From Bordetella parapertussis (GTDB taxonomy: Bacteria > Pseudomonadota > Gammaproteobacteria > Burkholderiales > SG8-41), in the NCBI GenBank assembly GCA_945885345.1, contig CAMCYP010000005.1, positions 7,021 to 71,020 of the forward strand: a stretch of 64,000 bases of DNA. Direction: 5' to 3'. Made by a program: the position numbers and the translations under genes. How positions within the stretch are numbered: position 1 is the stretch's first letter; every line of letters begins with the position of its first letter. The notes below the pieces were generated by a model. That model was given only the letters and a program-made list of their open reading frames with translations. It was not told the DNA's origin and ran no database searches. This document shows positions 16,883 through 52,737 of this stretch, piece after piece.

Positions 16883-17025
16883 TTCAGATTGCGGCGGCAG
16901 CGCCCACCGCAATCTGCCGTTGCCCCGCATTGAATTCATCCGGCGCTCGCCGGTCGAACGGGTATCGCTGTACCACGGGCTTCGGGTACAATACTGCGAT
17001 TATTCGACGCGGTTGACATTTTCTG

Positions 17026-17955
17026 ATGAAAATCAATGATTTAACAGGGGTTCGCGGCAGCATGGTGGCTATTGTCACGCCGATGGCGGATGACGGGGCG
17101 CTGGATATCGAAGCATTCCGCAAGCTGCTGGACTGGCATGTCGCCGAAGGCACTGACGGCATCGTCGTTGTCGGCACCACCGGCGAATCACCGACCGTTG
17201 ATTTCGACGAGCACCGCCTGCTGATCGAGACCGCGGTAAAACATGTTGCAGGACGCGTGCCGGTCATCGCCGGCACCGGCGCCAACTCGACGCGCGAAGC
17301 GATTGAACTTTCCGGATATGCCAAGGCGGCCGGCGCAGACATGAGCCTGACCGTGGTGCCGTATTACAACAAGCCGACGCAGGAAGGGCTGTACCGCCAT
17401 TTCCGTGCGATTGCCGAAGCGGTGGATATTCCGCAGATCCTCTACAACGTGCCTGGCCGCACCGTTGCCGATCTCGGCACCGATACGACGCTGCGACTGG
17501 CCGAGGTGCCGGGCATTGTCGGCATCAAGGATGCGACGGGCAACCTGGAGCGCGGCACCGAACTGCTGCGCCGCAAACCCAAATCATTCCGCGTCTACAG
17601 CGGCGACGATGCCACCGGTATTGCGCTGATGCTGCTCGGCGGTGACGGCGTGATTTCGGTGACGGCCAATGTCGCGCCGCGCCTGATGCACGAGATGTGC
17701 GCAGCCGCCCTCGGCGGCAATGCCACCCAGGCGGTGGCGCTGAATAACCGGCTGCTCGGTTTGCATCGTCATTTGTTTTGCGAGGCAAATCCGATACCGG
17801 TGAAATGGGCGGTGGAGCAACTGGGTCTGATGCAGGGTGGTATCCGCTTGCCGCTGACGCCGCTAGCGCCGCAATATCACGAACAGGTGCGCGAGGCCAT
17901 GCAGCAGGCTGGCGCTGTAAAAATTGCTGGAGGGAAGCGTCATGCAGTGGCTTAA
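17026..17955 (+). CDS. dapA: 4-hydroxy-tetrahydrodipicolinate synthase
   Basis: 309 aa. [19 protein letters not shown], Schiff-base Lys context [10 protein letters not shown]. Confidence 0.93.
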
Positions 17956-19081
17956 GCCGGCGGGTGTGGTTTTGGCAGTCGTCGCCGGATTGGCGCTGGG
18001 TGCCTGCAGTTCGGTGGAAATTCCTACCAAGAAAATCGATTACAAATCGACGACCAAGCTGCCCACCCTGGAAATCCCTCCGGATCTGGCGCGCCCCGGC
18101 AGCGATGAACGGTTTACGGTTCCGGATGCTGTTGCCAGCAAGGGTACGGCGACGTATTCCGATTACAACAAGGACCGCGCAGCTCGCCAGCCAAACTCTG
18201 CCCAGGCCGTGCTGCCGAACGTTGAAAACGTGCGCATCGAGCGTGCCGGCACGCAACGCTGGCTGGTGGTGCCGGGTACGCCCGAGAAAATATGGCCTAC
18301 GGTCAAGGAGTTCTGGCAGCAAACCGGGTTTGTGGTCAATGTCGAGCAGCCTGAAGCCGGGATCATGGAAACCGACTGGAACGAGAACCGCGCAAAAATT
18401 CCGGAATCCGGAATCCGCGGTTTGATCGGCCGTGCAATCGACAGTCTGTATTCAACTTCGGAGCGCGACAAATACCGCACCCGCATCGAAAACGGAGCAC
18501 AACCCGGCACGACTGAAATCTATGTCAGCCATCGCGGTATGGAAGAGGTGTATATCACCGAGGGCAAAGACCAGTTGCGCTGGCAGCCGCGCCCGCCGGA
18601 TCCTGACCTTGAAGCTGAGATGCTGCGCCGGATGATGGTGCGCTTTGGTGTTGATGGCGAACGCGCCAAAAGCCAGGTCGCTGCGGCCAAACTCGAGCCG
18701 CAGGCCAAACTCAACAAGGGCGGCGCCGAAGGCAGCATGCTTGCGCTGAACGACCAGTTTGACCGTGCCTGGCGGCGAGTCGGCCTGGCGCTGGATCGCG
18801 TCGGCTTCACGGTGGAAGACCGGGATCGCTCGAAGGGCCTTTACTTCGTGCGTTACATCGATCCCGATGCCGATTTGAAAACCACCGAGGAAAAAGGCTG
18901 GCTGTCCAAGCTGAAGTTCTGGAGCAGTTCAAAACCCCAGCCGGGCAAGGAGCAGTATCGCATTCTGGTGCAGGGCGATGGTTCCAGTGCTGAAGTCCGC
19001 GTGCTTGACAAGGATGGCGCGCGCGAACAGTCGGACACTGCCAATCGCATACTGTCGCTGCTCTATGAACAGCTGAAGTGA
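17942..19081 (+). CDS. bamC: outer membrane protein assembly factor BamC (NlpB)
   Basis: Lipobox LALGAC after [29 protein letters not shown]...[11 protein letters not shown] is typical of BamC. Sits immediately downstream of dapA as in E. coli. Confidence 0.8.
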
Positions 19082-19162
19082 GCGGCGCCGGCTGAAGCGT
19101 AAATCCACCCCGGCGCCACCCTTTTTCTTGCCGTTTTTTTGCCTGCGATACGTTTCGCCTCA

Positions 19163-19930
19163 ATGCGTTTTGCCTCATTAGGCAGCGGCAGCGAGGGCAA
19201 TGCGCTGGTTGTGGAGGCCGGCGCTTCGCGCGTGCTGCTCGATTGCGGTTTCAGTGCCGCCGAAACGGTGCGCCGGCTGGCCCGGCTCGGGCTGGAACCG
19301 GATGCGCTGGACGCCATACTGGTGACCCATGAGCATGATGACCATGTCGGTGGCGTGGCACGGTTTGCCCGCAAATTCAATATCCCGGTTTACCTGTCGT
19401 ATGGGACTCACGCGGCGACAGCTGCCGCTGGCAGCGTATTCCCTGAAGTGGTAATCATCGACAGCCATACCCCATTTGCGGTCGGGGACATCGAGATTTT
19501 TCCCTATCCGGTGCCGCATGATGCGCGCGAACCGACGCAGTTTGTATTTGGCAACGGCGCATCGCGGCTCGGGGTGCTGACCGATGCCGGGGCGTCCACG
19601 CCGCATATCGAAATCATGCTGTCCGGCCTCGATGCGCTGGTCATCGAATGCAACCACGACCGCGATCTGCTGCTGGGCAGCAGCTATCCGGAATATCTCA
19701 AGAATCGCATTGCCGGCCGCTACGGACACCTTGACAATAATCAGGCTGCGCAAATCGTCGCTGCGATCGACCGCCAGTCACTGCAGCACGTGGTGGCGGC
19801 GCATCTGTCGCAGAAAAACAATCGTCCCGATCTGGCCTGCGCAGCGCTGGCGGGTGCGCTCAACTGTGCGCCGGACTGGATCGGTGTGGCGTCGCAGGCG
19901 GATGGGTCCGACTGGCGCATGTTGTCCTGA
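19163..19930 (+). CDS. MBL-fold metallo-hydrolase
   Basis: MRFASLGSGSEGNA start and HxHxDH motif THEHDDHVGG. Substrate unknown. Confidence 0.8.
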   Translation: MRFASLGSGSEGNALVVEAGASRVLLDCGFSAAETVRRLARLGLEPDALDAILVTHEHDDHVGGVARFARKFNIPVYLSYGTHAATAAAGSVFPEVVIIDSHTPFAVGDIEIFPYPVPHDAREPTQFVFGNGASRLGVLTDAGASTPHIEIMLSGLDALVIECNHDRDLLLGSSYPEYLKNRIAGRYGHLDNNQAAQIVAAIDRQSLQHVVAAHLSQKNNRPDLACAALAGALNCAPDWIGVASQADGSDWRMLS

Positions 19931-19943
19931 CTTGAAGCGATAA

Positions 19944-19976
19944 TAAAAAAGCCGGCCCGCAGGCCGGCTTTTTTAT
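19944..19976. terminator. bidirectional Rho-independent terminator
   Basis: AAAAAA-GCCGGCC-cgca-GGCCGGC-TTTTTT between convergent genes. Confidence 0.85.
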
Positions 19977-19989
19977 TCAGCAGTAAAAC

Positions 19990-20271
19990 TTACTTCTTGA
20001 CTGCGTCCTTGGCAGCATCAGCAGCGCCTTTGGCGGCGTCAGCAGCGCCTTTGGCAGCATCAGCAGCACCTTTGGCGGCATCAGCGGCGCCTTGGGCGGC
20101 GTCGGCAGCCGGGGCAGCAGCGTCAGCTTTCGGGGCTTCAGGGGCGGGTGCCGGAGCCGGAGCCGGGGCCGGAGCGGGGGCCGGAGCAGGTGCGGGTGCC
20201 GGGGCGGGTTTTTCGCCGCAGGCGGTCAGGCCGAGGGCCAGCAGGGCAACAACGAGGAGGGAGCGATTCAT
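19990..20271 (-). CDS. small low-complexity lipoprotein with a (PA)n tract and GAADAAK heptad repeats
   Basis: MNRSLLVVALLALGLTACGE lipobox, then a PA dipeptide run and four GAADAAK repeats. The track ORF extends to 20496, but that part lacks coding character and overlaps the next gene. Confidence 0.7.
   Translation of the reverse strand: MNRSLLVVALLALGLTACGEKPAPAPAPAPAPAPAPAPAPAPAPEAPKADAAAPAADAAQGAADAAKGAADAAKGAADAAKGAADAAKDAVKK
20011..20110. repeat. tandem 21-bp repeat, about 4.5 units, inside the lipoprotein gene
   Basis: Units GGCRGCRTCAGCRGCRCCTTK at 20011, 20032, 20053 and 20074, plus a partial unit. Confidence 0.9.
20141..20208. repeat. hexanucleotide (GGNGCN) tandem tract encoding the (PA)n run
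   Basis: GGTGCCGGAGCCGGAGCCGGGGCCGGAGCGGGGGCCGGAGCAGGTGCGGGTGCCGGGGCGGG. Confidence 0.9.
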
Positions 20272-20428
20272 GATTATGACTATCCTTCGAAGGTAAAGTG
20301 GTTCATTCCAAATTTGGTTGGCACCGTTCACGCTGCGGAATTCGCGAAGACCTCCCGCAGCAGCCATCATGCCGGCGCGCATTCTATCAGTGTTTGGCAG
20401 GTAAAAGAGAGGCTGCAGCGACCGATAG

Positions 20429-20941
20429 TCACAGCCCGGTGACGTTTGCCGCCAGCGGCGGGCCGGAGCAGTCCTGGATTTCGCTGAAACGTTCAATCAG
20501 TTGCTGGGCGCCGGCGGCGTCATGCGTGCCGTGGGCTGCCCGCATGTGGTCGTAGTGGAAGCGGTGCACATAGTGGCTGCCGTCAAAAATGACAAATGGA
20601 TCAGCGGCTTGTTTGGCGGCACGCAGGGTCTCGCGGATGGTGCAGGCGTGGGTGAAGTGTTGCGCCAGATTGACCAGGCGCGGGCATTCCGTGATGAGCG
20701 GCCGGGTATCGTGGAGCAGGATCAACAAACGGTTGGCGCGATTGGCCAGCAGGAACTGTCTCAATAGTTCGACGCGTGCCGTGTTGTTCCAGGCGCGGCC
20801 TGTTGTCCTGTCAAAAGCCTTGTCGAAAACGCGAATGATGGTCTGGGTCATCGGGATCATCCGGTCGATGATCTCTTCGTATTCACGGTTGCTTTCGAAG
20901 CGCCGATATTCGGCATTGGGCGGATTGCCGGTCAGTTCCAT
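20429..20941 (-). CDS. hypothetical protein, no family recognised
   Basis: 170-aa ORF with balanced, non-Arg-rich composition. Lies 21 nt downstream of roxA on the same strand. Confidence 0.5.
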   Translation of the reverse strand: MELTGNPPNAEYRRFESNREYEEIIDRMIPMTQTIIRVFDKAFDRTTGRAWNNTARVELLRQFLLANRANRLLILLHDTRPLITECPRLVNLAQHFTHACTIRETLRAAKQAADPFVIFDGSHYVHRFHYDHMRAAHGTHDAAGAQQLIERFSEIQDCSGPPLAANVTGL

Positions 20942-20962
20942 GCGTATGGGTCCAAATTCCGT

Positions 20963-22078
20963 TCAGAGCGTCACGTAACCCGCGCGGTACCAGGCATACA
21001 GTACGTCCATGCCCGCTACCGGCACAGCAACCGGCGGCAGCATGCGGCGGTCGGCGAACTGGCGCAGACGCGGCCGCGCGCGCGCGGGTACGACGCAACG
21101 TTCACCGTTGATGTAAAACGCGGCGTAGTCGTAAAGCAGTATCGATTGCGGCGCCATGCGCAATCCCTGTTTCCTGACGGCTTTGCCAAATGCGGCCAGG
21201 GTCAGTGCCCGCTGTGGTTGTGCGTAGACCACATGGTTCTTGGGTGTGCTCAGATCCTCGCCGAGGAAACGCAGCAGGTCGTCGCGGCTCCAGCGCGCAC
21301 CGTCGAGCAGGCACAGCAGGCCCTGCGTCAGCTGGCTGTTGATCTGTGCGGGATGGCGGGTGGGTCTGAGTTGCGGGTCGGTGTAGAGCTGCGGCGCGTC
21401 CAGCCGGTCCTGCAGAAATTCGAGAAAGCGGCCGCACAGATCCTGCGCCGACGGTGCGCGAAAACCGATCGAGTAGGTAATGCATTCGTCGAGCGCAACA
21501 CCATCATGCGCGCAGCGCGGCGGCAGGTAGAGCATGTCGCCCGCCGCCAGCGTCCATTCGCGGGCGGCGCGGAAGCGGCTGAGTATTTTCAGCGGCGCAT
21601 CGGCGACCAGCGCCAGGCCGCGCTGGCTGCTGATCTGCCAGCGGCGCCGGCCTTCACCCTGCAACAGAAAGACATCGTAGCTGTCGAAATGCGGGCCGAC
21701 GCCGCCACCGGGCGGCGCGTAGCTGACCATCAGGTCGTCGAGGCGGGCATAGGGGATGAAGGCAAACTGCGCCAGCAGTGCCTGTGCCTCCGGCAACACA
21801 TGGTTCACGCCCTGCACCAGCAACGTCCAGTTGCGCGTGGGCAGTTTGGCGAAATCACGTTGCGTAAACGGGCCGTGGGTCACCTGCCAGCGTCCTCCTT
21901 TGCGCACGATCAGCCGCGATTCGGTATCCGCGGACCCGGCCATGTCCTGCAGGTCGCGGCGCGTCACCAGCGGCGCGAACTGCGGCAGGCTGCTGCGGGC
22001 CAGCAGCGGCTTTTTCTGCCAGTGCCGGTGCAGGAATTGTGCCGGGGTCAGGCCATTGAACAGTGGATTACGCATCAT
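20963..22078 (-). CDS. roxA: JmjC/cupin ribosomal protein oxygenase (YcfD/RoxA-like)
   Basis: 371 aa. FLHRHWQKKP, WQVTHGPF, NWTLLVQGVNH, PGGGVGPHFDSYDVFLLQGEGRRRW closely parallel E. coli YcfD. Confidence 0.85.
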   Translation of the reverse strand: MMRNPLFNGLTPAQFLHRHWQKKPLLARSSLPQFAPLVTRRDLQDMAGSADTESRLIVRKGGRWQVTHGPFTQRDFAKLPTRNWTLLVQGVNHVLPEAQALLAQFAFIPYARLDDLMVSYAPPGGGVGPHFDSYDVFLLQGEGRRRWQISSQRGLALVADAPLKILSRFRAAREWTLAAGDMLYLPPRCAHDGVALDECITYSIGFRAPSAQDLCGRFLEFLQDRLDAPQLYTDPQLRPTRHPAQINSQLTQGLLCLLDGARWSRDDLLRFLGEDLSTPKNHVVYAQPQRALTLAAFGKAVRKQGLRMAPQSILLYDYAAFYINGERCVVPARARPRLRQFADRRMLPPVAVPVAGMDVLYAWYRAGYVTL

Positions 22079-22207
22079 GGCTGATTATAAATTGACCGTC
22101 GCCTGCCGCGCTTGACCGGAAGACGCTTTGTTTACAAAATCCGGCATCGGGCGCCGTGCGGCGCGGGCCCGCCGGAATCCGGTGCCGAAACTGACCAAGG
22201 AACGTAG

Positions 22208-22687
22208 ATGCAAATTGCAAAAAACACGGTTGTGACCCTGACTTTTGAACTGCTGGACGCGCAGGGCGGCATGATTGAGAAAGCGGAAACGCCGATTGCC
22301 TATATTCATGGCGGGTTCCACGGTATTTTCCCGTTGGTCGAGCAGGCGCTCGACGGCAAAAAAGTCGGTGACAGTTGCGAAGTTCGCCTTACGCCGAATG
22401 ATGCCTTCGGCGAATACGATGCCAAGCTGGTGCAGGTTGAAGAGCGCGACAAATTTCCGCCCGATGTCGCCGTCGGCATGCAGTTTGAAGGCCGTGGTGA
22501 AGAGTCCGGCCATACTGTTGTGTACACGGTGACCGATGTTGCGGCGGACAAGGTCGTGGTTGACGGCAATCATCCGCTGGCCGGGCAGACGCTGAACTTC
22601 CATTGCACGGTGACGGAAGTGCGCGTGGCGACCGGTGAAGAATTGGAGCACGGGCATGTGCACGGCGCACACGGCCACCATCATTAA
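22208..22687 (+). CDS. slyD: FKBP-type peptidyl-prolyl isomerase SlyD
   Basis: 159 aa. FKBP plus IF-insert architecture and a His-rich tail HGHVHGAHGHHH. Confidence 0.9.
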   Translation: MQIAKNTVVTLTFELLDAQGGMIEKAETPIAYIHGGFHGIFPLVEQALDGKKVGDSCEVRLTPNDAFGEYDAKLVQVEERDKFPPDVAVGMQFEGRGEESGHTVVYTVTDVAADKVVVDGNHPLAGQTLNFHCTVTEVRVATGEELEHGHVHGAHGHHH

Positions 22688-22762
22688 GTGCGGTGGGGAG
22701 TGAGGAGTGTGGGCTGAGGTGCGCTACGGCGGATATATAAAAATATCAATAAAAACAAATAC

Positions 22763-25345
22763 TTATGATTTATTGCCGGGCTGCGTCAATTCACGCAGCC
22801 GGTAGAGCAGTTCCAGCGCATCGCGCGGCGTCAGCGCATCGGGGTCGCAGTCGCGTAGCGCATCGACGGCAGGATGCGGCTCTGGTGTCGCGGGTTCATT
22901 TGTCGGAGCGGAACCCGAGAACAAATCACCCTGCGGTACCTGCGCCGCCGCCGCAGCTTCCAGATCGGCCAGGCGTTTTTTTGCGCTGCGGATTACCGCG
23001 CCGGGTACGCCGGCGAGTTGTGCCACCTGCAAGCCGTAACTGCGGCTCGCCGGGCCTTCCTCGACGCTGTGCAGAAACACGATGCGGTCTTTATGTTCGA
23101 CCGCATCGAGATGCACGTTGGCCACCTGTTTGAATTCGACTGCGAGTTGCGTCAATTCAAAATAATGCGTGGCGAACAGCGTGTAACAGGCATTGCGTTC
23201 GATCAGGTGGTGCGCAATGGCCCAGGCCAGCGCGAGGCCGTCGTAAGTCGAAGTGCCGCGGCCGATTTCATCCATCAGCACCAGGCTCTGCGGCGTGGCG
23301 TGGTGCAGGATATAGGCGGCCTCGGTCATCTCGACCATGAAGGTCGAGCGGCCGCCGGCAAGATCATCCGCAGCGCCGATACGCGTGAAAATACGGTCCA
23401 GCGGGCCCAGCCGTGCACGTGTTGCCGGCACGAAGGATCCGCAATGTGCGAGCAGCGCAATCAGCGCGGTCTGCCGCATGTAGGTGGATTTACCGCCCAT
23501 GTTCGGGCCGGTGATCAGCAGCATGCGGCGCGTTGCTGACAGGCGCGCGTCGTTGGCAATGAAGGGGCTGGCCTGCGCTTCGACCACCGGATGGCGGCCG
23601 GCGGTGATGTCGATCACCGCTTCGTCGGTGAATTCCGGCGCCGACCAGTTGAGTGCAGTTGCGCGTTCGGCGAAGGTCGCCAGCATGTCGAGTTCGGCGA
23701 GTGCTGACGCAACGCGCTGCAGCTCCGGCACATGGGGGGCAAGTTTCGCCAGCAGCTGGTCGTAGAGCAGTTTTTCGCGTGCCAGCGCGCGATCCTGCGC
23801 CGACAGCGCCTTGTCCTCGAAGGTCTTCAGTTCCGGTGTGATGTAACGCTCGGCATTTTTCAGCGTCTGCCGGCGGCGATAATCATCCGGTACTTTTTCC
23901 GACTGCGCGCGCGTGACTTCGATATAGAAACCATGCACGCGGTTGAATTCCACTTTCAGCGTGGTAATGCCGGTACGTGTGCGTTCACGCACTTCGAGCT
24001 CAGCGAGGAAGGCGCCGCAGTTGTCCTGGATGCCGCGCAGTTCGTCGAGCTCGGCGTCGTAACCGTCAGCGATCACGCCACCTTCGCGGATCACCGATGA
24101 CGGTTCCGTTTTGACCGCTGCGGCCAGCAGGGCCGCCAGTTCATGCTGTGGGGCGAGGTCGGTGGCCAGCGCACGCAGGCGTGTAGTGCCGGTATCGCTG
24201 AGGGTTTGCACCAGTTCCGGCAGTCTCTGCAGTGAACTGCGCAGGCCGGACAGATCGCGTGGTCGTGCGGTGGCCAGTGCGACGCGGGCCGCGATGCGTT
24301 CGACATCGGAAAAATGCTTTAACGCACCGAGCAGGGGGACATAACGCTCGTTGCTTATCAGTTCGGCGACGGCCTGATGCAGCGACTGCACCAGCGCACG
24401 GTCGGTCAGCGGGTGGTGCAGCGCGTGGCGCAGCCGGCGGCTGCCCATGCCGGTGGCGCAGGTGTCGAGCAGCGACAGCAGTGTCGGCGCGGGTTCGCCG
24501 CGGATGGTTTCGGTGATTTCGAGATTGCGTCTTGTCGCCGGATCCATACGCAGATAGGCGCGTTCGGTTTCCACGGTCAGCGCGCGGACGTGGGCGATGG
24601 CCGATCCCTGCGTGGATTTGGCATAGTCGAGCAGCGCACCGGCAGCAGCGATGGCGACATCCATCGTCTGCGCGCCGAAGCCACTTAAATCATGGGTATC
24701 AAACTGCGCGCACAAGGTGCGGCGTGCGGTGTCGGTGTCAAAGCGCCACGGCGGCAGGTGGCGGACCGCGGTGCCGTCATCGACCGTATCCAGGGTTGCA
24801 CCTTCAGCCATCAGGATTTCCGCGGGACGCAGGCGTTCGATCTCGGCGGCAAAGTTCGTCGGCGCGGTTTCCATGACGCAGAAGCGCCCTGAGGCCAGCG
24901 ACAGCCAGGCCAGCCCCAGCAGATTGCCGCTGCGGTGCGCGGCGAGCAGCAGGTTTTCGCTTTTTTCGTCGAGCAGCGCTGATTCGGTCAGCGTGCCCGG
25001 CGTGACGATGCGCATCACCTTGCGTTCGACAGGGCCCTTGGAGGTGGCCGGGTCACCGATCTGTTCGCAGATGGCGACGGATTCGCCGAGCTTCACCAGC
25101 TTGGCCAGATACTGGTCCAGTGCATGGAAGGGCACACCGGCCATCTTGATCGGCGTGCCGGCTGATTCGCCGCGCGAGGTCAGCGTGATGTCCATCAGCC
25201 GCGCCGCGCGTTCGGCATCGTCGAAAAACAGCTCGTAGAAATCGCCCATGCGGTAGAACACCAGCTGATCCGGGTGCTCCGATTTGATGCGCAGGTACTG
25301 CTGCATCATTGGAGTATGTGCAGCGAAGGGCGTTTCCGGTTTCAT
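22763..25345 (-). CDS. mutS: DNA mismatch repair protein MutS
   Basis: [13 protein letters not shown]-terminus, Walker [10 protein letters not shown]. Start set at MKPETPF (25345); the track ORF extends to 25426. Confidence 0.95.
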
Positions 25346-25489
25346 GGGCCTTATTTTACGAGATGCACGGCTTGCTGCAATTGGTAAAGTCAACTTTGCC
25401 TGCCGAGCAGATGGGTTATGCTGCATGCTAATAATGCTATCCCCTGGGAATTAATTCGTTCGGGCATGAGTGGCCATGTTGACACTGAT

Positions 25490-28093
25490 ATGCGCGGTCC
25501 GGTGATTGTCATCAGCATCGCCTGGCGCGTACTGATGCTGGTGGGGGCGCTGATGCTGGCGCAGCCAGCTGTTGCCCGAGAGGTGCGTGTTGGTGTCTAC
25601 GAGAACGAGCCAAAAATAGTTCTCGGTCAGGATGGTCAGCCATCAGGCATATTGGGAGATCTGCTGCAGGAAATTGCGCGCCGCGAAGGCTGGACCTTGC
25701 GAGCGGTGCCGTGCGAATGGCAGGCCTGTCTTGAGGCGCTGCGGTCTGGCGCCATCGATTTGATGCCGGATGTAGCGTACACCGAGGATCGCGACAAGGT
25801 TTTTGATTTTCACGCTGTGCCCGCCCTGTACAGCTGGTCCCAGATTTATCGTCATCCCCGGGAATCCATTGCCTCCATGCCTGAACTGCAGGGCAAGCGG
25901 GTTGCTGTGCTCGAAGGTTCGGTGCAGGAAAGTTATTTGAGGCAACTGCTGGCCGAGTTCGGGGTAAGTGCCACGCTGGTGCCGGTGCGGGATTTGAGTG
26001 AAGGTTTTGCGCAGGCCGGATCCCACACCGTTGACGCGGTGGTTGCGAACCACAGCTATGGTGACCTGCATGCGCTGCGCTACCATTTGGTACAAACCCC
26101 GATCATGTTTCAACCTGCGCGGCTGTTCTATGCGACTGGCAGCGGCAGGGAGGGGGAGCTGCTGGCGGTGATCGACAGGCACCTAAAATCCTGGCAGGAC
26201 GATACGAGTTCGGTCTATTTCGAGGTGTTGCGGCGCTGGGGGGCACCCCAGCAACAAGTGCGGGTGCCTGCCGCAGTCTGGTGGGGAGGTGCTGTCGTGG
26301 TGGCCCTGCTGTTGCTCGCCATGGCCGCTGCAGCGCTGTTGCGCCGTCAGGTGAACATCAGGACACACGATCTGCGTGCGAGCGAAGACCGTTTGGCGAC
26401 TATCCTCAACAGCGTTGACGCCTATATTTATATCAAGGACATAGGATTGCGCTACCAGTACGCCAATCGCAAGGTCTGCGAACTGTTCGGAAGACCGCAT
26501 GATCAGGTCACGGGCCATATCGACGGTGATTTTTTTGATGAGGCGACAGCGGCCCGCTTGCGGGAGAACGACCTTCGCGTCATTGAAGGCGGTGAGCGCA
26601 TAGTCGAGGAGGAGGTCAATAAACCCCGTGATGGCAGCGCAGAGCGCATCTTACTCTCTGTAAAATTGCCGCTGCGTGAGCTGGACGGCCGGATTTACGC
26701 GCTGTGCGGCATCTCTACGGATATTACCGAGCAGCGCCGGTTCGTTGAGGAAATCCACCAGCTTTCTTTTTATGATCACCTGACTCATTTACCCAACCGG
26801 CGGCAGTTTCTCGAGCGCTTGTCTGATGCGCTTCAAGCCTGCAAGCCCACGGTTGCCGAAGGTGCACCGCGCAATCAAGGCGCGTTGCTGCTGGTGAATC
26901 TGGATTACTTCAAGATGGTGAACGACGCGCTGGGTTACGACAAGGGGGACCTGCTGCTTCAGGAGATGGCCAAGCGGCTGTTGCAGCATGTACGGATTGC
27001 GGATTTTCTGGGCCGATTGGGCAGTGACGAGTTTGGATTGCTGGTTTCGGGCTTGGATGCGGATCCCCGTGCGGCAGCGCGCGAAGTCGAGTTGCGGGCC
27101 CGGCAGATTCTCTCCGACCTCAGCCAGCCCTATGAACTGGGGGAGCGCCGGCATCTCTGCACGGCGAGCATCGGTATTGCGATGCTTTCCGGCAGTGACG
27201 GCTCAGCCGAGGAAATTCTGCAGCGCGCCGATATGGCGAAGGAGCGTGCCAAAAGCGACGGCCGAAATTCGGTCCGGTTTTTCGACCCGTTGATGCAGGC
27301 ACAGATGCTGGCTCGTTCTGCGCTTGACGCCGATATGAGGCTTGCATTGCGCGAGGGCCAGTTCCTGTTGTATTACCAGCCGCAGGTCGACGATCAGGGG
27401 TTGTGGGTGGGCTGCGAAGCGCTGGTGCGCTGGAGGCATCCGCAACGCGGCATGGAGTCGCCGGCAGACTTCATCCCGGTTGCCGAAGACAGCGGTCTGA
27501 TCCTGCCCTTGGGAAGATGGATATTGGAGACCGCCTGCAGGCAACTGGTGGCATGGAGCAGCCAGCCTCAAACTTCAAAATGGTTTATTGCGGTGAACGT
27601 GAGTGCCTATCAGTTCCAGCACCCGGATTTCGTCAAGGAAGTGCTGGCAGTATTGGAAGAGACTGGTGCTGATCCGGGGTTGCTTGAACTGGAGTTGACC
27701 GAGAGCCAATTGGTTCAGAATTTCGAGGATGTGATTGCCAAGATGTCCGCGCTCAAGGATCGTGGTGTCCGTTTTTCTCTGGACGATTTTGGAACCGGGT
27801 ATTCATCGCTGCTTTTTCTCAAGCGACTTCCCCTGGACAAGCTGAAAATAGATCAGTCATTTATACGCGATTTGATGTTCGATGCCGACAGCGAGGCCAT
27901 TGTCAGCGCCGTCGTTGGACTCGGCAAGAGCCTGGAGCTGGATATCAGCGCGGAAGGGGTGGAGACGCAGGAGCAACGCGCAGCCTTGGCCGCGATCGGT
28001 TGCCATCTTTGCCAGGGATATCTTTTTGCCCGTCCGGCACCTGCAGAAGATATTGTGAAATTGCAGCCCGGTCCCGGGGCAGTCATCCAGTAA
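25490..28093 (+). CDS. membrane sensor: periplasmic solute-binding domain, TM, PAS, GGDEF (GSDEF variant), EAL
   Basis: Signal/TM at the N-terminus, SBP-type domain, second TM, then PAS. GGDEF region with RIAD I-site five residues before GSDEF. EAL domain with EALVRW and DDFGTGYSS. Start uncertain (25418 or 25490). Confidence 0.85.
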   Translation: MRGPVIVISIAWRVLMLVGALMLAQPAVAREVRVGVYENEPKIVLGQDGQPSGILGDLLQEIARREGWTLRAVPCEWQACLEALRSGAIDLMPDVAYTEDRDKVFDFHAVPALYSWSQIYRHPRESIASMPELQGKRVAVLEGSVQESYLRQLLAEFGVSATLVPVRDLSEGFAQAGSHTVDAVVANHSYGDLHALRYHLVQTPIMFQPARLFYATGSGREGELLAVIDRHLKSWQDDTSSVYFEVLRRWGAPQQQVRVPAAVWWGGAVVVALLLLAMAAAALLRRQVNIRTHDLRASEDRLATILNSVDAYIYIKDIGLRYQYANRKVCELFGRPHDQVTGHIDGDFFDEATAARLRENDLRVIEGGERIVEEEVNKPRDGSAERILLSVKLPLRELDGRIYALCGISTDITEQRRFVEEIHQLSFYDHLTHLPNRRQFLERLSDALQACKPTVAEGAPRNQGALLLVNLDYFKMVNDALGYDKGDLLLQEMAKRLLQHVRIADFLGRLGSDEFGLLVSGLDADPRAAAREVELRARQILSDLSQPYELGERRHLCTASIGIAMLSGSDGSAEEILQRADMAKERAKSDGRNSVRFFDPLMQAQMLARSALDADMRLALREGQFLLYYQPQVDDQGLWVGCEALVRWRHPQRGMESPADFIPVAEDSGLILPLGRWILETACRQLVAWSSQPQTSKWFIAVNVSAYQFQHPDFVKEVLAVLEETGADPGLLELELTESQLVQNFEDVIAKMSALKDRGVRFSLDDFGTGYSSLLFLKRLPLDKLKIDQSFIRDLMFDADSEAIVSAVVGLGKSLELDISAEGVETQEQRAALAAIGCHLCQGYLFARPAPAEDIVKLQPGPGAVIQ

Positions 28094-28094
28094 G

Positions 28095-28784
28095 GTGCGG
28101 TTCTTGCATAAGCGCATACTGTTGTTGGCGTTGCTGATGGCTGCGCTTTGTGCCTGCACCCCGCAGCAGGTGCTGCTCAATGCATTGATTCCGGATGGCA
28201 CGACCTCGATGCTGTTGTCGCACCTGCAGACCGTCGAGGACGGTAACCGCCGGCGCGTCATCGACCTGGAGCAGAAGGGGGACTGGGCCGGACTCAGCGG
28301 TTTTGCCGACACCAATATTGCCGCTGATCCTTTCAGCCCGGAGTGGCGGATGATCGGTGGTTATGCGCAGTTGCAGTTGCGCGATTATCCCAGAGCCATG
28401 GCGTATTTCAGCGAAATGATCCGGCTCGCGCCGGACGATGCCTCGGGGTATCACTTTCTTGCCGAGACACAGCGTGCCGCGGGGCAGCCGCAGCGGGCAG
28501 TGACCACGCTGGAGCGTGCTCTGTTGGTGGTGCGCGAGTCGCCGCTGACCCATCAATTGCTGGGAGAGGCGTACAGCGACATGGGGCGTTACCGGCCTGC
28601 CGCGGAATCCTATAACCGCGCGCTGGCGCTGGATCCGCTGCTGGTTGATGCCTGGTTCGGCATGGGGCGTGCGTCGTTGCAACTGGGGCGTACTGCGGAT
28701 GCGCGGGATGCGCTGAGCGAGCTGGAACGGCTGCATTCGCCGCGTGCTACGGAACTGCGTGCGTTGCTGGCGAAAGCAAAGTAA
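28095..28784 (+). CDS. TPR-repeat lipoprotein
   Basis: GTG start 1 nt after the preceding stop. Lipobox LCAC. Several TPR-like repeats (AEAYSDMGRYRPAAESYNRALALDP). Confidence 0.7.
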   Translation: MRFLHKRILLLALLMAALCACTPQQVLLNALIPDGTTSMLLSHLQTVEDGNRRRVIDLEQKGDWAGLSGFADTNIAADPFSPEWRMIGGYAQLQLRDYPRAMAYFSEMIRLAPDDASGYHFLAETQRAAGQPQRAVTTLERALLVVRESPLTHQLLGEAYSDMGRYRPAAESYNRALALDPLLVDAWFGMGRASLQLGRTADARDALSELERLHSPRATELRALLAKAK

Positions 28785-28810
28785 CGAGTTGGCAGGTTAT
28801 TAAAAAACGA

Positions 28811-28899
28811 CTCGTCACCCCGGCGAAAGCCGGGGCCCAGGAAACACATTCACATTAATCAACAACTTACTGGATGCCGGCTTTCGCCGGCATGACGAG
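28811..28899. repeat. REP-like inverted pair of hairpin modules
   Basis: Left arm CTCGTCACCCCGGCGAAAGCCGGGGCCCAG (28811-28840). The reverse complement of the right arm (28870-28899) is CTCGTCATGCCGGCGAAAGCCGGCATCCAG. Each arm is itself a hairpin with compensatory changes. Confidence 0.85.
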
Positions 28900-28932
28900 G
28901 TTGTTATTGCCGCGACGAATTTCAACATCCGA

Positions 28933-30696
28933 TCAGCGCGGCGGGATCACCGGCAGCAGCAGGGCGGATGATTGCTCCGGTCCGGTGTGCAGTGTGACCT
29001 TGCCGCCGAAGATCGCAGACGGCCGATCCATCTCATCATCGTGTTCGAACGGACCGCAGCCGCGCATCGGATGTTTCATGTTCGACAGCGTGGTTGCCGC
29101 GCCATCCCAGACATAGTCCCTGCCGCGGATGGTCAGTGCGACACGATAATCTTTTGGTACGACGATGCAGGTCGGCCAGATCTCGATATCCAGTGCATAC
29201 GCGGTGCCCGGCGTCAGCAATTGCTTTTCATCGTGGGTATGCCAGGGTCGGTACGGCAGGGAACGCGCCACATCCAGTTTGCGGTGCGAGGCGCGTAGCC
29301 AGCCCTGGCTGACGGGGGTGTGCGGGTCGAGCGCACCCTGGAATACGACTTCCTTGTCCTGGGGATCGAATACCCGCAGCACCACAAACAGGTCGGCATC
29401 GACGGTTGAAGAAGAAACAAACAGTCGCAGTGCCGACGGCCCGGTGATTTCCGTGTCTTCGGTCAACGGTGGCGTGCTGAAAGTGAGGCCTTCGCCCATG
29501 GCATCGTAGCTCAGGGTTTGATCGGTGGTGACCGGCGTTGGCGACAATGTCATGTCGCGCGGATCAAGGTACAGGTTCGTCCAGCGTGTGCGTGCCAGCG
29601 GCCATTCCTGTTCGTGACGTTCGACAAAGCGTTCTTTGCCGTTCTGTGGCGCATGGCGTAGCTGCAGCAGCACGCGCGGCTGTTGCGCCCAGCCGGTTTT
29701 CTCGCCCTTGAGGAAATGACCGAAGAATTTTTTCTGCAGACCGACGCCGTAGTCGGTGTAGAACGGCGCCCAGTGCGAGCCACCATGCACTTCCAGCCAT
29801 TTGTCGCGCGATGCGGCGCGCAGGAAACCCTCGAAATTGCCGCGGGAATGCAGGCCGAGGCCGCCCCAGTTGGCGGCTGACAGCAGCGGCACTTTGACTT
29901 TGCTCAGGTCCGGTGTGCGTTCGCGGTAGTACTCGTCTTCCATTTCCCGCGCCGAAATTTGCTGCCACATGTTTTCGCGGTTGGCGACGAGTTCGGCCTC
30001 ATCCAGGGTTTCCGGGCCGCAGACCAGTTCGCCGGTGATGGGATTGCGTGCGCCGCGTTCGCCGACGCCGTGCTGCACGGTCTTGACCTGCATATCCTGC
30101 CAGTTTTTGCGGAAGACACAGACGATGCCGCCGTGGCGGTTACCGTCGCGGTAAGAGTCCGACCAGCCTTCCCACACGCAGATCGCGGCGAGGTGCGGCG
30201 GTTGCGCAGCTGCGGCCCGCCACTGGTTGGAAGCGTAATAGGAAATGCCGTTCAGCCCCACCTTGCCGTTGCACCAGGGTTGCGCTGCGGCCCATTCGAT
30301 GCAGTGGTAAATATCCTGCGTTTCGCGCTGGTTGTTGTGGCAGAGGAAACCAGGTGAACGACCGGCACCGCGCGAATCGACGCGGATCACCACATAACCG
30401 TCGGGCACCCATTTTTCCGGATCGACGACTTCCCAGTTGGCGTAGCGGTTGCTGGTGTTGGCGACGGCGTCCGGGTTGTCGCGGCACATGATCTCCCAGG
30501 CAGTTTTGTAACCGTCCTGGAAGGCGAGACCTTTGCCGTAGGGGCCGTAGGACAGCAGCACAGGATAACGGCCCGGTGTCACTGGCAGGAACACGTCGGC
30601 GCGCAGCACCAGGCCGTCGTCCATGGTGACGGGTACATCCCAGGCGATGCGCATGCCATCGCGTAATTCTGTTTTTAAATTCTGCGTCACGTGCAC
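28933..30696 (-). CDS. CocE/NonD family (X-Pro dipeptidyl-peptidase S15-like) hydrolase
   Basis: 587 aa. N-terminal alpha/beta fold (PVLLSYGPYGK, VRVDSRGAGRSPG) and a C-terminal jelly-roll-like region. Confidence 0.8.
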   Translation of the reverse strand: MHVTQNLKTELRDGMRIAWDVPVTMDDGLVLRADVFLPVTPGRYPVLLSYGPYGKGLAFQDGYKTAWEIMCRDNPDAVANTSNRYANWEVVDPEKWVPDGYVVIRVDSRGAGRSPGFLCHNNQRETQDIYHCIEWAAAQPWCNGKVGLNGISYYASNQWRAAAAQPPHLAAICVWEGWSDSYRDGNRHGGIVCVFRKNWQDMQVKTVQHGVGERGARNPITGELVCGPETLDEAELVANRENMWQQISAREMEDEYYRERTPDLSKVKVPLLSAANWGGLGLHSRGNFEGFLRAASRDKWLEVHGGSHWAPFYTDYGVGLQKKFFGHFLKGEKTGWAQQPRVLLQLRHAPQNGKERFVERHEQEWPLARTRWTNLYLDPRDMTLSPTPVTTDQTLSYDAMGEGLTFSTPPLTEDTEITGPSALRLFVSSSTVDADLFVVLRVFDPQDKEVVFQGALDPHTPVSQGWLRASHRKLDVARSLPYRPWHTHDEKQLLTPGTAYALDIEIWPTCIVVPKDYRVALTIRGRDYVWDGAATTLSNMKHPMRGCGPFEHDDEMDRPSAIFGGKVTLHTGPEQSSALLLPVIPPR

Positions 30697-49998: not shown

Positions 49999-50751
49999 TC
50001 AATATCCCAGTACAAGCTTCACGACCAGCATCATTACGACGCCCAGTACAAAGGCCGCGAAGTGAATGATATTGGCCTTCATGTCAGTATGTGCCTTGAC
50101 CTCTGGAATCAGGTCTGATGCGCCAATGTAAATGAAATTGCCGGCCGCGAACGGCACCAGAAAGGATATGTCGAGCCGGAAAGATGCGAAGTAGGCAATG
50201 ATGCTTCCCAGCAGGAAGGTCAGTGCGGACAGCACGTTGTAGAACAGCGCCTGGCGTCGCCCCCAGCCGCCATGCACTAGTACCCCGAAATCACCGAGTT
50301 CTTGCGGCACCTCGTGTGCTGCTGCTGCGAGCCAGGTCACGATGCCCAAGCGGATGTCAATCAGAAAGGTCCCCGCCACTGCCAGCCCGCCCAGGAAATT
50401 GTGCAGGCCATCGCCGATCAGTATCAAGTAAGTCAGCGGTTTTTTGCATGTGGTTTCGGCACGATGGCAGTGATGCCAGTGCAGGAGCTGTTCCAGTCCG
50501 AAGAAAATCGTGAAGCCAGCCAGAACGAGGGTGTAGACGGTAAGATCGCCCAAGCCGGAGGCGAGTCCCACCGGGATCATGTGAAAAAAGGCTCCGCCCA
50601 GCAGTGAGCCGGCAGAGAAGGCCACCAGCGGCAGCAGTATGCGCTGCAGCGTTTGTTCGCTCAGCACCAATGTAATGCTGCCGACGAGCGCAATTGCGCT
50701 CATCATCAGCCCGCTCCCGACAATCCACAGCAACAACGGATCCAGGTTCAT
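49999..50751 (-). CDS. ZIP-family divalent metal transporter
   Basis: 250 aa, multi-TM. HEVPQELGDF and GDGLHNFLGG motifs, His-rich loop HWHHCH. Confidence 0.85.
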   Translation of the reverse strand: MNLDPLLLWIVGSGLMMSAIALVGSITLVLSEQTLQRILLPLVAFSAGSLLGGAFFHMIPVGLASGLGDLTVYTLVLAGFTIFFGLEQLLHWHHCHRAETTCKKPLTYLILIGDGLHNFLGGLAVAGTFLIDIRLGIVTWLAAAAHEVPQELGDFGVLVHGGWGRRQALFYNVLSALTFLLGSIIAYFASFRLDISFLVPFAAGNFIYIGASDLIPEVKAHTDMKANIIHFAAFVLGVVMMLVVKLVLGY

Positions 50752-50941: not shown

Positions 50942-51451
50942 TCAAGGAAAGGCCGGGATGGTCGGTTCGACGCCTTTGACGTCGGCTTCAGGGTGATGTT
51001 GCTTGATGATCTGCGTGATTTCCTGGATGCGGGCTACAGGCACGTCGATCATCATCAAAAGTTCGCCCTTGTTGATGGCACGCTCGAAGCGTTTCAGGTG
51101 CGTATTGCCCACATTCATGCCCACCATGCCGCCCAGCCATGCGCCGACCCCCGCACCTGCCAAGGTGCTCGCAAGGATGATGCCGCCGGCAATGACGATG
51201 TTGGCTGCCGGCAGCGAAATCGCCACCAGACCGGCCAGGGTGCCGGCGGCCCCCCCCATCGCAAGTCCGCGCTGTGTGGCGGGGATGAAATCCGATTTTT
51301 GCAACAAAGAGGCCTCAGGCAAATCTTCCAACGGCGTGCCGCGCTTTGCGAGTACGTGCATATTGCGTTCTTCGATACGCGCCAGCAGCAATTCGTCAAC
51401 GATGGCTTTCGCGCTGGCAATGTTCGGGGCAAGGAAATAAAGGCGTTTCAT
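50942..51451 (-). CDS. DUF1269-like membrane protein with glycine-zipper segment
   Basis: MKRLYFLAP start. Gly/Ala-rich TM region GGAAGTLAGL...GAGVGAWLGGMVG. The track ORF extends to 51550. Confidence 0.55.
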   Translation of the reverse strand: MKRLYFLAPNIASAKAIVDELLLARIEERNMHVLAKRGTPLEDLPEASLLQKSDFIPATQRGLAMGGAAGTLAGLVAISLPAANIVIAGGIILASTLAGAGVGAWLGGMVGMNVGNTHLKRFERAINKGELLMMIDVPVARIQEITQIIKQHHPEADVKGVEPTIPAFP

Positions 51452-51633: not shown

Positions 51634-52239
51634 TCAGTCCCCCATTTCCGGTTTCCAGATTTCCCAAATCCTGCCTACGAGATCAGGCCCCGGCTTGAGC
51701 GTCATTTTGCCGGGCTTCCATCCCGACGGCGTGGCCTCGGCGCCTTTGCTGTCGCGGACCACCTGGAAAGCCTGGATCTGCCTGATGGTTTCGCCCACGT
51801 TCCTGCCGACCGGCGGCGTCAGCACTTCGAAAGCCTGGATGATGCCGTCGGGATCGATGATGAACCGCCCGCGGTTTTCCACCCCCGCATCCTCGTCGTA
51901 CGCGCCGTAGACCGTTCCGACCTTGCCGCCTCCGTCGGAGAGCATGGCGAAAGGGACGCCGCCCTTGACCATTTTCGACAGTTCATGGTCATTCCACATC
52001 TTGTGCACGAAAACGCTGTCGACGCTCATCGACAGGACTTCGACGCCGAGTTTCTGAAATTCCGGATATTTATCGGCGACCGCCGATATCTCCGTTGCTC
52101 AGACAAACGTGAAATCACCCGGATACAGGCAGAGCACGACCCATTTGCCCAGGTGATCCGAGAGTTTTACCGAGGTGAACGCGCCCTTGTGATAAGCCGG
52201 CGCGACAAAATCAGGGGCTGGTTTTCCGACCTGGATCAT
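51634..52239 (-). CDS. peroxiredoxin (AhpC/Prx family) with in-frame UGA at the peroxidatic position; candidate selenoprotein
   Basis: Track ORFs 52099..52425 and 51634..52029 share one frame. The only stop between them is the TGA at 52099-52101, codon 47. Read-through gives [17 protein letters not shown], against the family motif FTFVCPTEI. ATG 52239 lies 7 nt after AAGGAGG. Confidence 0.75.
52064..52093 (-). promoter_or_regulatory. SECIS-like stem-loop downstream of the in-frame UGA
   Basis: RNA GGAGAUAUCGGC-GGUC-GCCGAUAAAUAUCC starts 5 nt after the UGA codon (8 nt after its first base). 7-bp apical stem and GGUC loop, with G/U at +22/+23 from the U of UGA. Confidence 0.55.
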
Positions 52240-52737
52240 TTTACGTACCTCCTTCGGTGATTGCGGTGTCTGCATTTCCTGCGTTGCGTCCGCTTGCCCC
52301 ACCGGGCCGCCGGTCGGTCGGGCGCATCCAATTTTGGGTGTTTCAGCCATAACAAAACTCCTTCGGAATAAAGATTCCATGGCGTCGGGAAATGATGAGG
52401 ATTTGCCCATTGCGCTGGATATCAACGGAAATCGGCTTGCTGAGACCTGATACTACCTGCTACTAGAAGCGGGGGCTTGGACGTTTATTGATACAGGTCA
52501 ACGCGGCAGGTGCTCCTGGTCGCACTTGTGTCAGGAGCCAATTTTTATATTTAAAAACATGGCATTGTCGCTGGCATCGGCCTTCGCGTCCCTGGTCCGG
52601 GCACTGGCTGGCACGTCGCTCAGGCTGCGCCGGAACCAAAATGCTATCTTATTGATTTTAAAGGTAAATAATATCGATTATAATGCGCCCCTCAAAACGC
52701 TGGCCGCATCCTGCGACAGCGTGGCACCAGGCATCAG

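Follow-up and report, generated by a model that had tools for sequence, protein, structure and literature searches.

The locus considered here raises a simple question with two very different answers. A single in-frame TGA divides a peroxiredoxin (Prx) gene on the minus strand of the 64,000-nt stretch of DNA that was analysed (hereafter, the window), and this gene has either been inactivated by a nonsense mutation or encodes an intact protein in which the codon is read as selenocysteine (Sec). An earlier note on this DNA had favored the second answer, and our results point the same way. Specifically, we assign a probability of roughly 0.9 to the locus being an intact prxU gene, in which the peroxidatic Cys is replaced by Sec via an in-frame UGA and a SECIS hairpin. 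PrxU is a Prx1/AhpC-type, thioredoxin-dependent peroxiredoxin with Sec in place of the peroxidatic Cys.

The description of the reading frame in the earlier note held on the sequence. The minus-strand open reading frame fragments at 52099..52425 and 51634..52029 lie in the same frame, the 69 nt separating them are stop-free, and the TGA at 52101..52099 is the sole break in a frame that is otherwise open across 51634..52350 (Table 1), with no further stops or frameshifts. The terminator of the gene, at 51636..51634, is a TGA as well. As had been predicted for automatic annotation, the ENA assembly of the same locus carries the gene as two pieces, of 83 aa and 131 aa. A single in-frame stop and a gene called as two fragments are also what would be seen in an ordinary pseudogene, that is, a Cys-type peroxiredoxin killed by a lineage-specific TGC/TGT-to-TGA nonsense mutation, and the comparative data presented below bear directly on that alternative.

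Read from ATG 52350 through the UGA, the product matched the NCBIfam model NF040737 (peroxi_PrxU) over its full length (model positions 2-233 of 233), scoring 414.2 bits against a cutoff of 270, and it still scored 394.4 bits when started at ATG 52239. Its Pfam domains are AhpC-TSA and 1-cysPrx_C. The TIGR03137 AhpC model, in turn, gave 184 bits, under its cutoff of 272, and, with UGA at the peroxidatic position (C_P) and Thr at the resolving position (C_R), the product falls outside the typical 2-Cys Prx/AhpC enzymes. The gene is a further member of an established and curated family, and it is unusual mainly for its betaproteobacterial host.

Table 1. Features of the prxU locus, in window coordinates
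Feature	Position	Strand	Details
prxU CDS, long form	51634..52350	minus	238 codons plus stop; Sec UGA is codon 84; from frame and translation
Shine-Dalgarno AAGGAG, first start	52358..52363	minus	7 nt upstream of ATG 52350..52348
N-terminal arm with invariant Cys9	52294..52350	minus	GCxRP motif; Cys9 codon 52326..52324
Variable linker, residues 20-37	52240..52293	minus	Follows the N-terminal arm
Internal Shine-Dalgarno AAGGAGG	52248..52254	minus	8 nt upstream of the internal ATG
Internal start ATG, Met38	52237..52239	minus	Would give a 201-aa short form, Sec47
Cys74	52129..52131	minus	-10 from Sec in LC(L/F)YPGDFTFVU; candidate second resolving thiol
Sec codon UGA (U84)	52099..52101	minus	Peroxidatic Cys site in P77-x3-T81-x2-U84
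PrxU UGA-plus-SECIS covariance-model match	52051..52104	minus	Full match
SECIS apical hairpin UAUCGGC-GGUC-GCCGAUA	52071..52088	minus	18 nt, 11 nt after UGA; positions 14-31 (U of UGA = 1)
SECIS loop GGUC	52078..52081	minus	Positions 21-24; G22 and U23 exposed
Thr207 at the resolving-Cys position	51730..51732	minus	EV-C-PAGW to EA-T-PSGW, from alignments to 4fh8 and 7kj1

The UGA codon and the hairpin behind it

When aligned with solved peroxiredoxins, the UGA coincides with C_P, where the earlier note had placed it, with FTFV-U-ATE as the flanking residues, and the catalytic Pro77, Thr81, and Arg160 are retained. Without exception, the PrxU loci retrieved from other species carry TGA here. 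Specifically, it was found at 82/82 loci in a set drawn from the Desulfobacterota, Planctomycetota, Acidobacteriota, Nitrospirota, Spirochaetota, Chloroflexota, and others, as well as at 74/74 further fetched loci, some of which are re-fetches of the same contigs. A DNA pattern search, in which the pattern itself includes the TGA, added 120 Sec-type loci from GC-rich genomes. In Cys forms of the family this codon is TGC, as seen in a small set of controls (n = 4) that were fetched individually; when the Cys-form alignment was used as a query for Cys-form loci, the matches were all TGA forms. Such family-wide conservation of the TGA argues against a nonsense mutation confined to one lineage. 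Within the window, a scan for other TGA-split open reading frames gave 94 candidates, among which a recognisable redox motif was present in prxU alone, an uninformative result at 60% GC.

Because the TGA is family-wide, a sequencing or assembly error is unnecessary as an explanation. Moreover, an ENA contig from a separate assembly matches exactly over 12,274 nt, TGA included, and 12 sites differ in a second contig from that population, which indicates that the assemblies are independent; we consider an error at this codon barely credible. In many database homologues, the Sec site is recorded as W or G, as would be expected if a reassigned code or general suppression had UGA read as Trp, Gly, or Cys, in which case the product would be no selenoprotein. 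However, these residues arose artificially when TGA was translated under codes 4 or 25, and Trp or Gly as the peroxidatic residue would abolish catalysis. In the window, TGA terminates 13/20 genes and occurs internally in 0/19 of the others, and the hairpin that follows the prxU UGA has a SelB-type GGUC loop, leaving a negligible probability for a reassigned code or suppression.

Regarding that hairpin, the structure drawn in the earlier note, GGAGAUAUCGGC-GGUC-GCCGAUAAAUAUCC, beginning 5 nt past the UGA, stood in part. The 7-bp apical stem and the GGUC loop are present in the minimum free energy (MFE) fold, but the lower stem (positions 8-11 with 36-39) is not conserved in the family, in which it showed no covariation, and it was excluded from the element. 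The MFE is -24.2 kcal/mol (z = -2.26), and 6/200 shuffles fold as well. Thus, the fold of the single sequence is weakly better than chance, and the significance of the hairpin derives from the comparative data. Across PrxU loci, 98.9% of cells are paired, a value matched by 0/500 shuffles, while slid-register controls were 38-69% paired. Compensatory changes occur in 5/8 hairpin pairs, at synonymous sites; for example, the pair 18-27 at such sites is GC in 48 loci, AU in 27, UA in 6, and CG in 1. G22 and U23 are invariant (82/82 loci), with 42 loci having a GGUC loop and 39 an AGUU loop. When a covariance model was trained on 81 other species, with the window left out, it recovered the element at 76.6 bits (E = 4.6e-18) as the sole significant match in 64 kb, the runner-up scoring 8.9 bits. 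The hairpin is absent in 3/4 Cys-form homologues, and no Rfam model recognised it at either gathering or E-value thresholds. A hairpin that co-varies immediately after the TGA again speaks against the pseudogene. From what is established for Sec insertion in bacteria, SelB-GTP-Sec-tRNA(Sec) would bind the apical loop (G22, U23) with the ribosome at the UGA, such that Sec would be inserted at codon 84, and the terminal UGA of prxU, which has no hairpin, would end translation.

Coding integrity, host, and probable transfer

Downstream of the UGA, the product keeps 34/34 family-invariant residues and 42/43 of those conserved at >=90% (P = 1e-7), and dN/dS is 0.04-0.13. With purifying selection persisting beyond the TGA and no extra stops or frameshifts in the gene, the pseudogene reading is refuted by the comparative data, and we hold it to be highly improbable. 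Taken together, the PrxU family match, the conserved TGA, the covarying hairpin recovered by the covariance model, and the downstream constraint, alongside the ordinary use of TGA as a stop in the window, indicate a selenoprotein gene, in agreement with the earlier proposal of a PrxU-type Sec peroxiredoxin.

The remaining alternative concerns the host. The window contains none of selA, selB, selC, or selD, as had been noted earlier; no sel genes (NCBIfam models on selected open reading frames) and no tRNA were detected in the 64 kb. Further, Sec-PrxU is rare in Betaproteobacteria, accounting for 1/120 of the GC-rich matches (an Ottowia metagenome-assembled genome), PrxU adjoins prfC in 0/80 related prfC loci, and the closest homologues of the window PrxU belong to other phyla, at <=81% identity. 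The host is an uncultured betaproteobacterium that probably acquired prxU horizontally. These same observations would also fit a gene that was transferred recently and became stranded in a host without Sec machinery, in which translation would stop at UGA84 and the gene would be effectively dead while too young to have decayed. However, since the nearest known homologue is ~81% identical, the lineage has substantially diverged, and despite this divergence 76/77 conserved downstream residues are kept, at the P and dN/dS values given above. In addition, no damage is seen in the hairpin, in either Shine-Dalgarno motif, or in either ATG. The GC3 of prxU (0.72-0.77) is the same as that of host genes, which likewise counts against a stranded gene, although the nearest homologues are themselves GC-rich, so that matching GC3 is no proof of long residence. 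Finally, Sec decoding is a frequent trait among Betaproteobacteria (PMC1794560). Weighing these points, we consider a stranded gene unlikely and return to the functional selenoprotein gene as the preferred reading: we infer a Sec-decoding capacity in the source organism, and prxU probably marks its host as a Sec-decoding organism.

Two translation starts and candidate resolving thiols

The earlier note had begun the protein at ATG 52239. This start does place the UGA at codon 47 and is a conserved internal start, but the full-length start of the family lies 37 codons upstream, at ATG 52350, with Sec as residue 84 of 238. A Shine-Dalgarno-like motif precedes the equivalent first ATG in 91/107 family loci, the arm motif (GCxRP) is in frame in 107/113 distinct PrxU loci, and the NF040737 model covers the arm. 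The Gly, Cys, Arg, and Pro of the arm are kept through all synonymous codons, which indicates selection at the protein level. In the AF2 model of a Cys-form homologue, pLDDT is 55-60 for the arm and <50 for the linker, and the Prx core is confident.

The internal start is marked just as clearly. The AAGGAGG that the earlier note had described before ATG 52239 is present at 52254-52248, although we counted its spacer as 8 nt rather than 7. An SD-like motif occupies this place in 113/113 loci, against a background of 1.6% within the same genes, and its nucleotides are conserved even though the residues they encode differ (KE, QE, EE, RE, AE, TE). At -46 from Sec, 105 loci have ATG, 2 have GTG, and 1 has ATT, and in the remaining 5 loci an ATG lies two codons further upstream, with the SD shifted along with it. 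These patterns of sequence conservation suggest that both starts are probably used, yielding a 238-aa long form with U84 and a 201-aa short form with U47.

The earlier note had also read EATPSGW at the position of the resolving Cys, and alignment to solved 2-Cys Prx structures bears this out; T207 is nearly invariant across the PrxU family. Its description of a one-Sec enzyme without a resolving Cys is accurate for the canonical C-terminal position, but other conserved cysteines exist, namely, C9 in the arm and C74. The Cys74 column is invariant in a 102-sequence PrxU alignment, and the equivalent site holds Phe in solved Prx1/AhpC enzymes. Going by peroxiredoxin chemistry, the selenolate, activated by Pro77, Thr81, and Arg160, would reduce the peroxide and become a selenenic acid, which would be resolved by a thiol before thioredoxin recycles the enzyme. 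With Thr207 in place of the canonical C-terminal resolving Cys, resolution would fall to thioredoxin itself or to one of two conserved cysteines, namely, Cys9 on the flexible N-terminal arm and Cys74, for which resolving roles are suggested by their conservation.

One possible, and still tentative, extension of these observations is that PrxU genes are dual-start genes, with a long isoform in which the arm Cys, being tethered, might resolve the Sec-selenenic acid, and a short "one-Sec" isoform, which would correspond to the 203-aa form reportedly purified from Eubacterium acidaminophilum. In such a dual-start scheme, the arm Cys may take over from the C-terminal resolving Cys that 2-Cys peroxiredoxins have and PrxU has lost. 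We found no description of a dual-start or N-terminal resolving Cys architecture of PrxU in the searchable literature.

Significance and relation to known systems

For annotation, the consequence is that the 83 aa and 131 aa fragments of the public assembly belong together and should be annotated as a single selenoprotein of 238 aa. The gene represents a rare betaproteobacterial case of a selenoperoxidase, as PrxU is otherwise typical of anaerobes (Desulfobacterota, Clostridia), together with Acidobacteriota, Planctomycetota, and NC10. To our knowledge, the PrxU family has seen almost no biochemistry since 2001, and the by-products of this analysis may outweigh the gene itself in usefulness. 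These include a clean alignment of the SECIS in which synonymous sites covary four ways, evidence that many PrxU proteins in public databases have W or G at the Sec site, and a hypothesis, open to testing, that PrxU has two isoforms and an N-terminal resolving Cys. Further, the locus suggests that selenoprotein genes have moved horizontally into hosts in which Sec decoding already serves formate dehydrogenase. Zhang et al. (2006) reported FdhA as the only selenoprotein family in Betaproteobacteria (PMC1794560), which counts against a functional Sec-PrxU in this host; prxU would extend the betaproteobacterial selenoproteome beyond FdhA.

Relative to typical 2-Cys peroxiredoxins, the predicted fold is of the Prx1/AhpC type (TM ~0.9, normalised to the target) and matches those of human Prx2 (7kj1), AcePrx-1 (4fh8), and Salmonella AhpC (4ma9), with ~45-50% identity in the core. 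The catalytic Pro, Thr, and Arg and the C-terminal 1-cysPrx_C region are common to both groups. In contrast, PrxU has Sec for the peroxidatic Cys, FVUA for FVCP, and Thr for the resolving Cys (VCP), and it adds the invariant Cys at -10 and the N-terminal Cys arm.

The likeness to the Escherichia coli fdhF SECIS that the earlier note had pointed to proved to be real. Both hairpins lie within the coding sequence, immediately 3' of the UGA, and in both the minimal element is an upper stem-loop ~11 nt from the UGA; the prxU loop G-U falls within ~20-25 nt of it, in keeping with fdhF-type spacing. The loop is the same GGUC, with a 1-nt offset (positions 21-24 in prxU and 22-25 in fdhF, placing the G-U at 22-23 and 23-24, respectively). 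The two differ in that the prxU stem is a perfect 7-8 bp helix, with no bulged U like U17 of fdhF, in that half of the PrxU family has an AGUU loop, and in that the lower stem of PrxU is not conserved. A bulge of this kind in the upper stem is not known to be shared by all bacterial SECIS elements.

The closest relationship is with PrxU itself (NF040737), represented by the prototype from E. acidaminophilum and by CLOST_2406 of Clostridium sticklandii, with which the window gene shares the full-length HMM match, the UGA in PxxxTxxU, the GCxRP arm, the family SECIS, and the absence of a C-terminal resolving Cys. As the earlier note had stated, a Sec peroxiredoxin has been experimentally established in E. 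acidaminophilum (Sohling 2001, as cited in PMC13188914). The C. sticklandii protein has Sec84 in 240 residues (PMC3091704), and the window protein likewise has Sec84 in ~240 residues. What sets the window protein apart within the family is modest: it is at most ~81% identical to any known member, and it carries F75L and an Asp for Glu at the stem-pairing codon (AUA...GAU), each of which is shared with a few other members.

Frame, family, and selection across the UGA

The peroxiredoxin gene (prxU) lies within one minus-strand frame that runs from 52425 to 51634, with the TGA at 52101..52099 as the sole interruption; a check of the sequence bore out the earlier note on this frame, on the translation from ATG 52239 (...EATPSGW...PEMGD), and on the AAGGAGG at 52254-52248. 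In a public assembly, the locus is annotated as a pair of gene fragments, 83 and 131 aa long. With the stop read as Cys, Pfam assigns AhpC-TSA and 1-cysPrx_C domains to the product, which from ATG 52239 scores 394 bits against the NCBIfam equivalog NF040737 'peroxi_PrxU' (cutoff, 270 bits), aligned from model position 35 on. Extended upstream in frame, it reaches 414 bits and covers model positions 2-233 of 233, while the AhpC model TIGR03137 stays below threshold (184 bits vs a cutoff of 272). The closest solved structures (4fh8, 7kj1, and 5zte), typical 2-Cys peroxiredoxins of the Prx1/AhpC subfamily, share the fold (TM ~0.9; core identity, ~45-50%). In alignments to these, the UGA falls on the peroxidatic Cys, as had been proposed; Pro77, Thr81, and Arg160 are conserved, and the catalytic triad around the selenocysteine (Sec) is intact.

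The UGA is a property of the family. Thousands of homologues turned up among the 5.8 billion proteins searched, and many of the closest (P0001-P0120) carry W, and one G, at the catalytic position. The DNA behind one such entry (L002:135-857) has TGA at this codon; the W or G comes from reading UGA under genetic code 4 or 25, a systematic database artefact that disguises selenoproteins as seemingly full-length Trp proteins. On whether orthologues have UGA or TGC, TGA was found in 80/80 fetched reference-genome loci (from Desulfobacterota, Planctomycetota, Acidobacteriota, Nitrospirota, Spirochaetota, Chloroflexota, Calditrichota, and others), as well as in L002 and the window. A second scan found it in 74/74 loci, some of them the same contigs fetched again, and a further 120 Sec-type loci were recovered in GC-rich genomes with a DNA pattern that includes the TGA. 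Genuine Cys-form PrxU exist as a minority.

Within the window, TGA ends 13 of the 20 confidently identified genes, prxU among them, and none of the other 19 contains an internal in-frame TGA; thus, the genetic code is standard. The separately assembled ENA contig k141_1184961 is identical to the window over 12,274 nt, TGA included. A second ENA contig, k141_1306204, differs from window positions 15418-29838 at 12 of 14,421 positions, which shows that the assemblies are independent and indicates strain-level heterogeneity of the population in the sample. Purifying selection on prxU extends past the UGA. Specifically, 34/34 family-invariant and 42/43 residues conserved at ≥90% are kept downstream of it (hypergeometric P = 1e-7), where 16% of positions differ from the nearest relative, and comparison with the closest homologues gives a dN/dS of 0.04-0.13 at nearly saturated dS.

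The hairpin after the UGA

The proposed SECIS hairpin, GGAGAUAUCGGC-GGUC-GCCGAUAAAUAUCC, is present, its first base five nt past the UGA codon. Folded alone, the region reaches -24.2 kcal/mol (z = -2.26; 6/200 shuffles fold equally well); since this is a modest gain over shuffles, the structure is established by comparative data rather than by one sequence. With the U of UGA numbered 1, the stem joins positions 14-20 to 25-31 in virtually every sequence; the loop has an invariant G22-U23 flanked by positions 21 and 24, which change together (G-C in 42, A-U in 39). Several of the paired bases sit at synonymous third positions of codons: pair 18-27, joining Ser UCN with Ala GCN, is GC in 48, AU in 27, UA in 6, and CG in 1, and pair 15-30, joining Ile AUN with Glu/Asp GAN, is UA in 53, CG in 16, and AU in 11. 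Overall, 98.9% of alignment cells are paired, with double changes in 5/8 pairs, a pattern that 0/500 shuffles match, and pairing falls to 38-69% in controls with the partner shifted by 1-3 columns. The lower stem drawn in the earlier note shows no covariation in the family alignment.

A covariance model built from 81 other sequences, with the window left out, gave one significant match in the 64 kb, at 52051-52104 (-) (76.6 bits; E ~5e-18), the next best reaching 8.9 bits; the element has no counterpart among Rfam models. Of four Cys-form genes for an almost identical peptide, three lack the hairpin (4-5/8 pairs, and no G-U where the loop would be). The fourth (L242:1001-1795, protein P0018, TGC) keeps 8/8 of the SECIS stem with the loop GAUC rather than GGUC, and may carry a fossil SECIS after a recent Sec-to-Cys conversion. 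The Escherichia coli fdhF SECIS, to which the earlier note likened this hairpin, was verified against 5,419 genomes: the GGUC loop is identical but lies at 22-25 (G23, U24) in fdhF, versus 21-24 in the window.

The terminator of prxU (51634-51636) is also TGA, 154 codons past the Sec-UGA. In this mRNA, therefore, UGA would be read two ways, and the hairpin alone would tell one from the other. On established knowledge of Sec decoding, SelB with Sec-tRNA(Sec) would bind the GGUC loop and insert Sec at codon 84, and the terminal UGA, having no hairpin, would end translation. The selenolate would reduce peroxide, giving a selenenic acid that a thiol would resolve, and thioredoxin would recycle the enzyme.

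Two starts and the N-terminal arm

ATG 52239, the start assigned earlier, holds as a conserved start but is internal; the start annotated for the family is ATG 52350. That ATG (52350..52348) follows an AAGGAG with a 7-nt spacer and opens a long form of 238 residues, in which the UGA is codon 84. Codon -46 from Sec, corresponding to ATG 52239, is ATG in 105/113 loci, GTG in 2, and ATT in 1; the remaining 5 have ATG two codons upstream, with the Shine-Dalgarno (SD) motif shifted along. An SD-like motif precedes the -46 start in 113/113 loci, against a background of 1.6% in the same genes, and its nucleotides are conserved though the encoded residues vary. PrxU genes, then, conserve two regions for translation initiation within a single frame (upstream SD and ATG; internal AAGGAGG-N8-ATG), which suggests long and short isoforms. 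The prototype enzyme of Eubacterium acidaminophilum, reportedly purified as a 203-residue protein with Sec47, corresponds to the short form.

In 107/113 distinct loci, the arm consensus occurs in frame, ahead of a linker that varies. Gly, Cys, Arg, and Pro of the arm are conserved with all synonymous codons used; hence, the arm is translated and, judging from this comparison, is under protein-level selection across phyla. An AlphaFold2 model of a Cys-form homologue has a confident core, with pLDDT of 55-60 in the arm and <50 in the linker between arm and core, which is probably disordered. The earlier view that no resolving Cys exists stands for the canonical position, where Thr207 (EA-T-PSGW) takes the place of the Cys of EV-C-PAGW in solved structures, but not for the protein as a whole, since Cys9, on the flexible arm, and Cys74 are candidates. 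Cys74 (position -10 relative to Sec) never varies in the PrxU family, whereas Prx1/AhpC enzymes have Phe there. Cys9 may be a tethered resolving thiol, under a hypothesized scheme of two isoforms; alternatively, thioredoxin could act directly.

Features of prxU and its downstream neighbours
Feature	Positions	Strand	Basis
prxU upstream initiation region (SD + ATG)	52348-52363	-	Sequence
N-terminal arm, residues 1-19	52294-52350	-	Family comparison
Cys9 codon	52324-52326	-	Invariant in arm
prxU internal initiation region, AAGGAGG-N8-ATG	52237-52254	-	Sequence; family comparison
169-aa glycine-rich membrane protein, directly downstream of prxU	50942-51451	-	Sub-threshold YflT (heat-induced stress protein) match only
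ZIP metal transporter, next after the 169-aa protein	49999-50751	-	Gene identification

Genomic context and known selenoproteins

The gene content of the window is that of an ordinary chromosome (carB, ftsH, glmM, pstS, sufB, mutS, mfd, prfC, a ZIP transporter, and others). The window's prfC shares at most 74-78% identity with those of Polaromonas, Nitrosospira, Rubrivivax, and Piscinibacter; the host is therefore an uncultured betaproteobacterium that has no close relative among reference genomes. No convincing terminator was seen between prxU, the 169-aa protein gene, and the ZIP gene, and the latter two may thus be cotranscribed with prxU. As noted earlier, the 64 kb hold no sel genes, nor any tRNA; we infer that the Sec machinery is present in the host genome. 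Published surveys found the Sec-decoding trait frequent in Betaproteobacteria, with FdhA, in 2006, as the sole selenoprotein family there (PMC1794560).

The gene was likely acquired horizontally. PrxU lies beside prfC in 0/80 related loci, and 1 of the 120 GC-rich pattern matches is betaproteobacterial, an Ottowia MAG. This locus (L293, Ottowia sp., contig NZ_DAOKZG010000055.1) and L286, on a 1.7-kb contig of a MAG labelled Acidithiobacillus ferrivorans that may be mis-binned, are the only Sec-PrxU among the 120 assigned to Betaproteobacteria/Acidithiobacillia; at 66-68% protein identity (Ottowia, 66%), they are not orthologous to the window gene. GC3 of prxU (0.72 overall, 0.77 downstream of the UGA) falls among host genes (0.66-0.82), a match that gives no acquisition date because the nearest homologues are GC-rich too.

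The proposed selenocysteine peroxiredoxin is supported at the sequence level by every PrxU membership test run, and to a specialist this is unsurprising: the family is covered by a curated NCBI model and counted as an experimentally established bacterial selenoprotein family in current reviews (PMC13188914, in a passage citing Sohling et al. 2001). What is new is a member at most ~81% identical to known ones, in an unusual host class. The dual-start, N-terminal-Cys architecture that we hypothesize for PrxU found no description in the searchable literature. The geometry of the long form has a known likeness in the annotated selenoperoxiredoxin of Clostridium sticklandii, with Sec84 of 240 residues against codon 84 of 238 in the window (PMC3091704).
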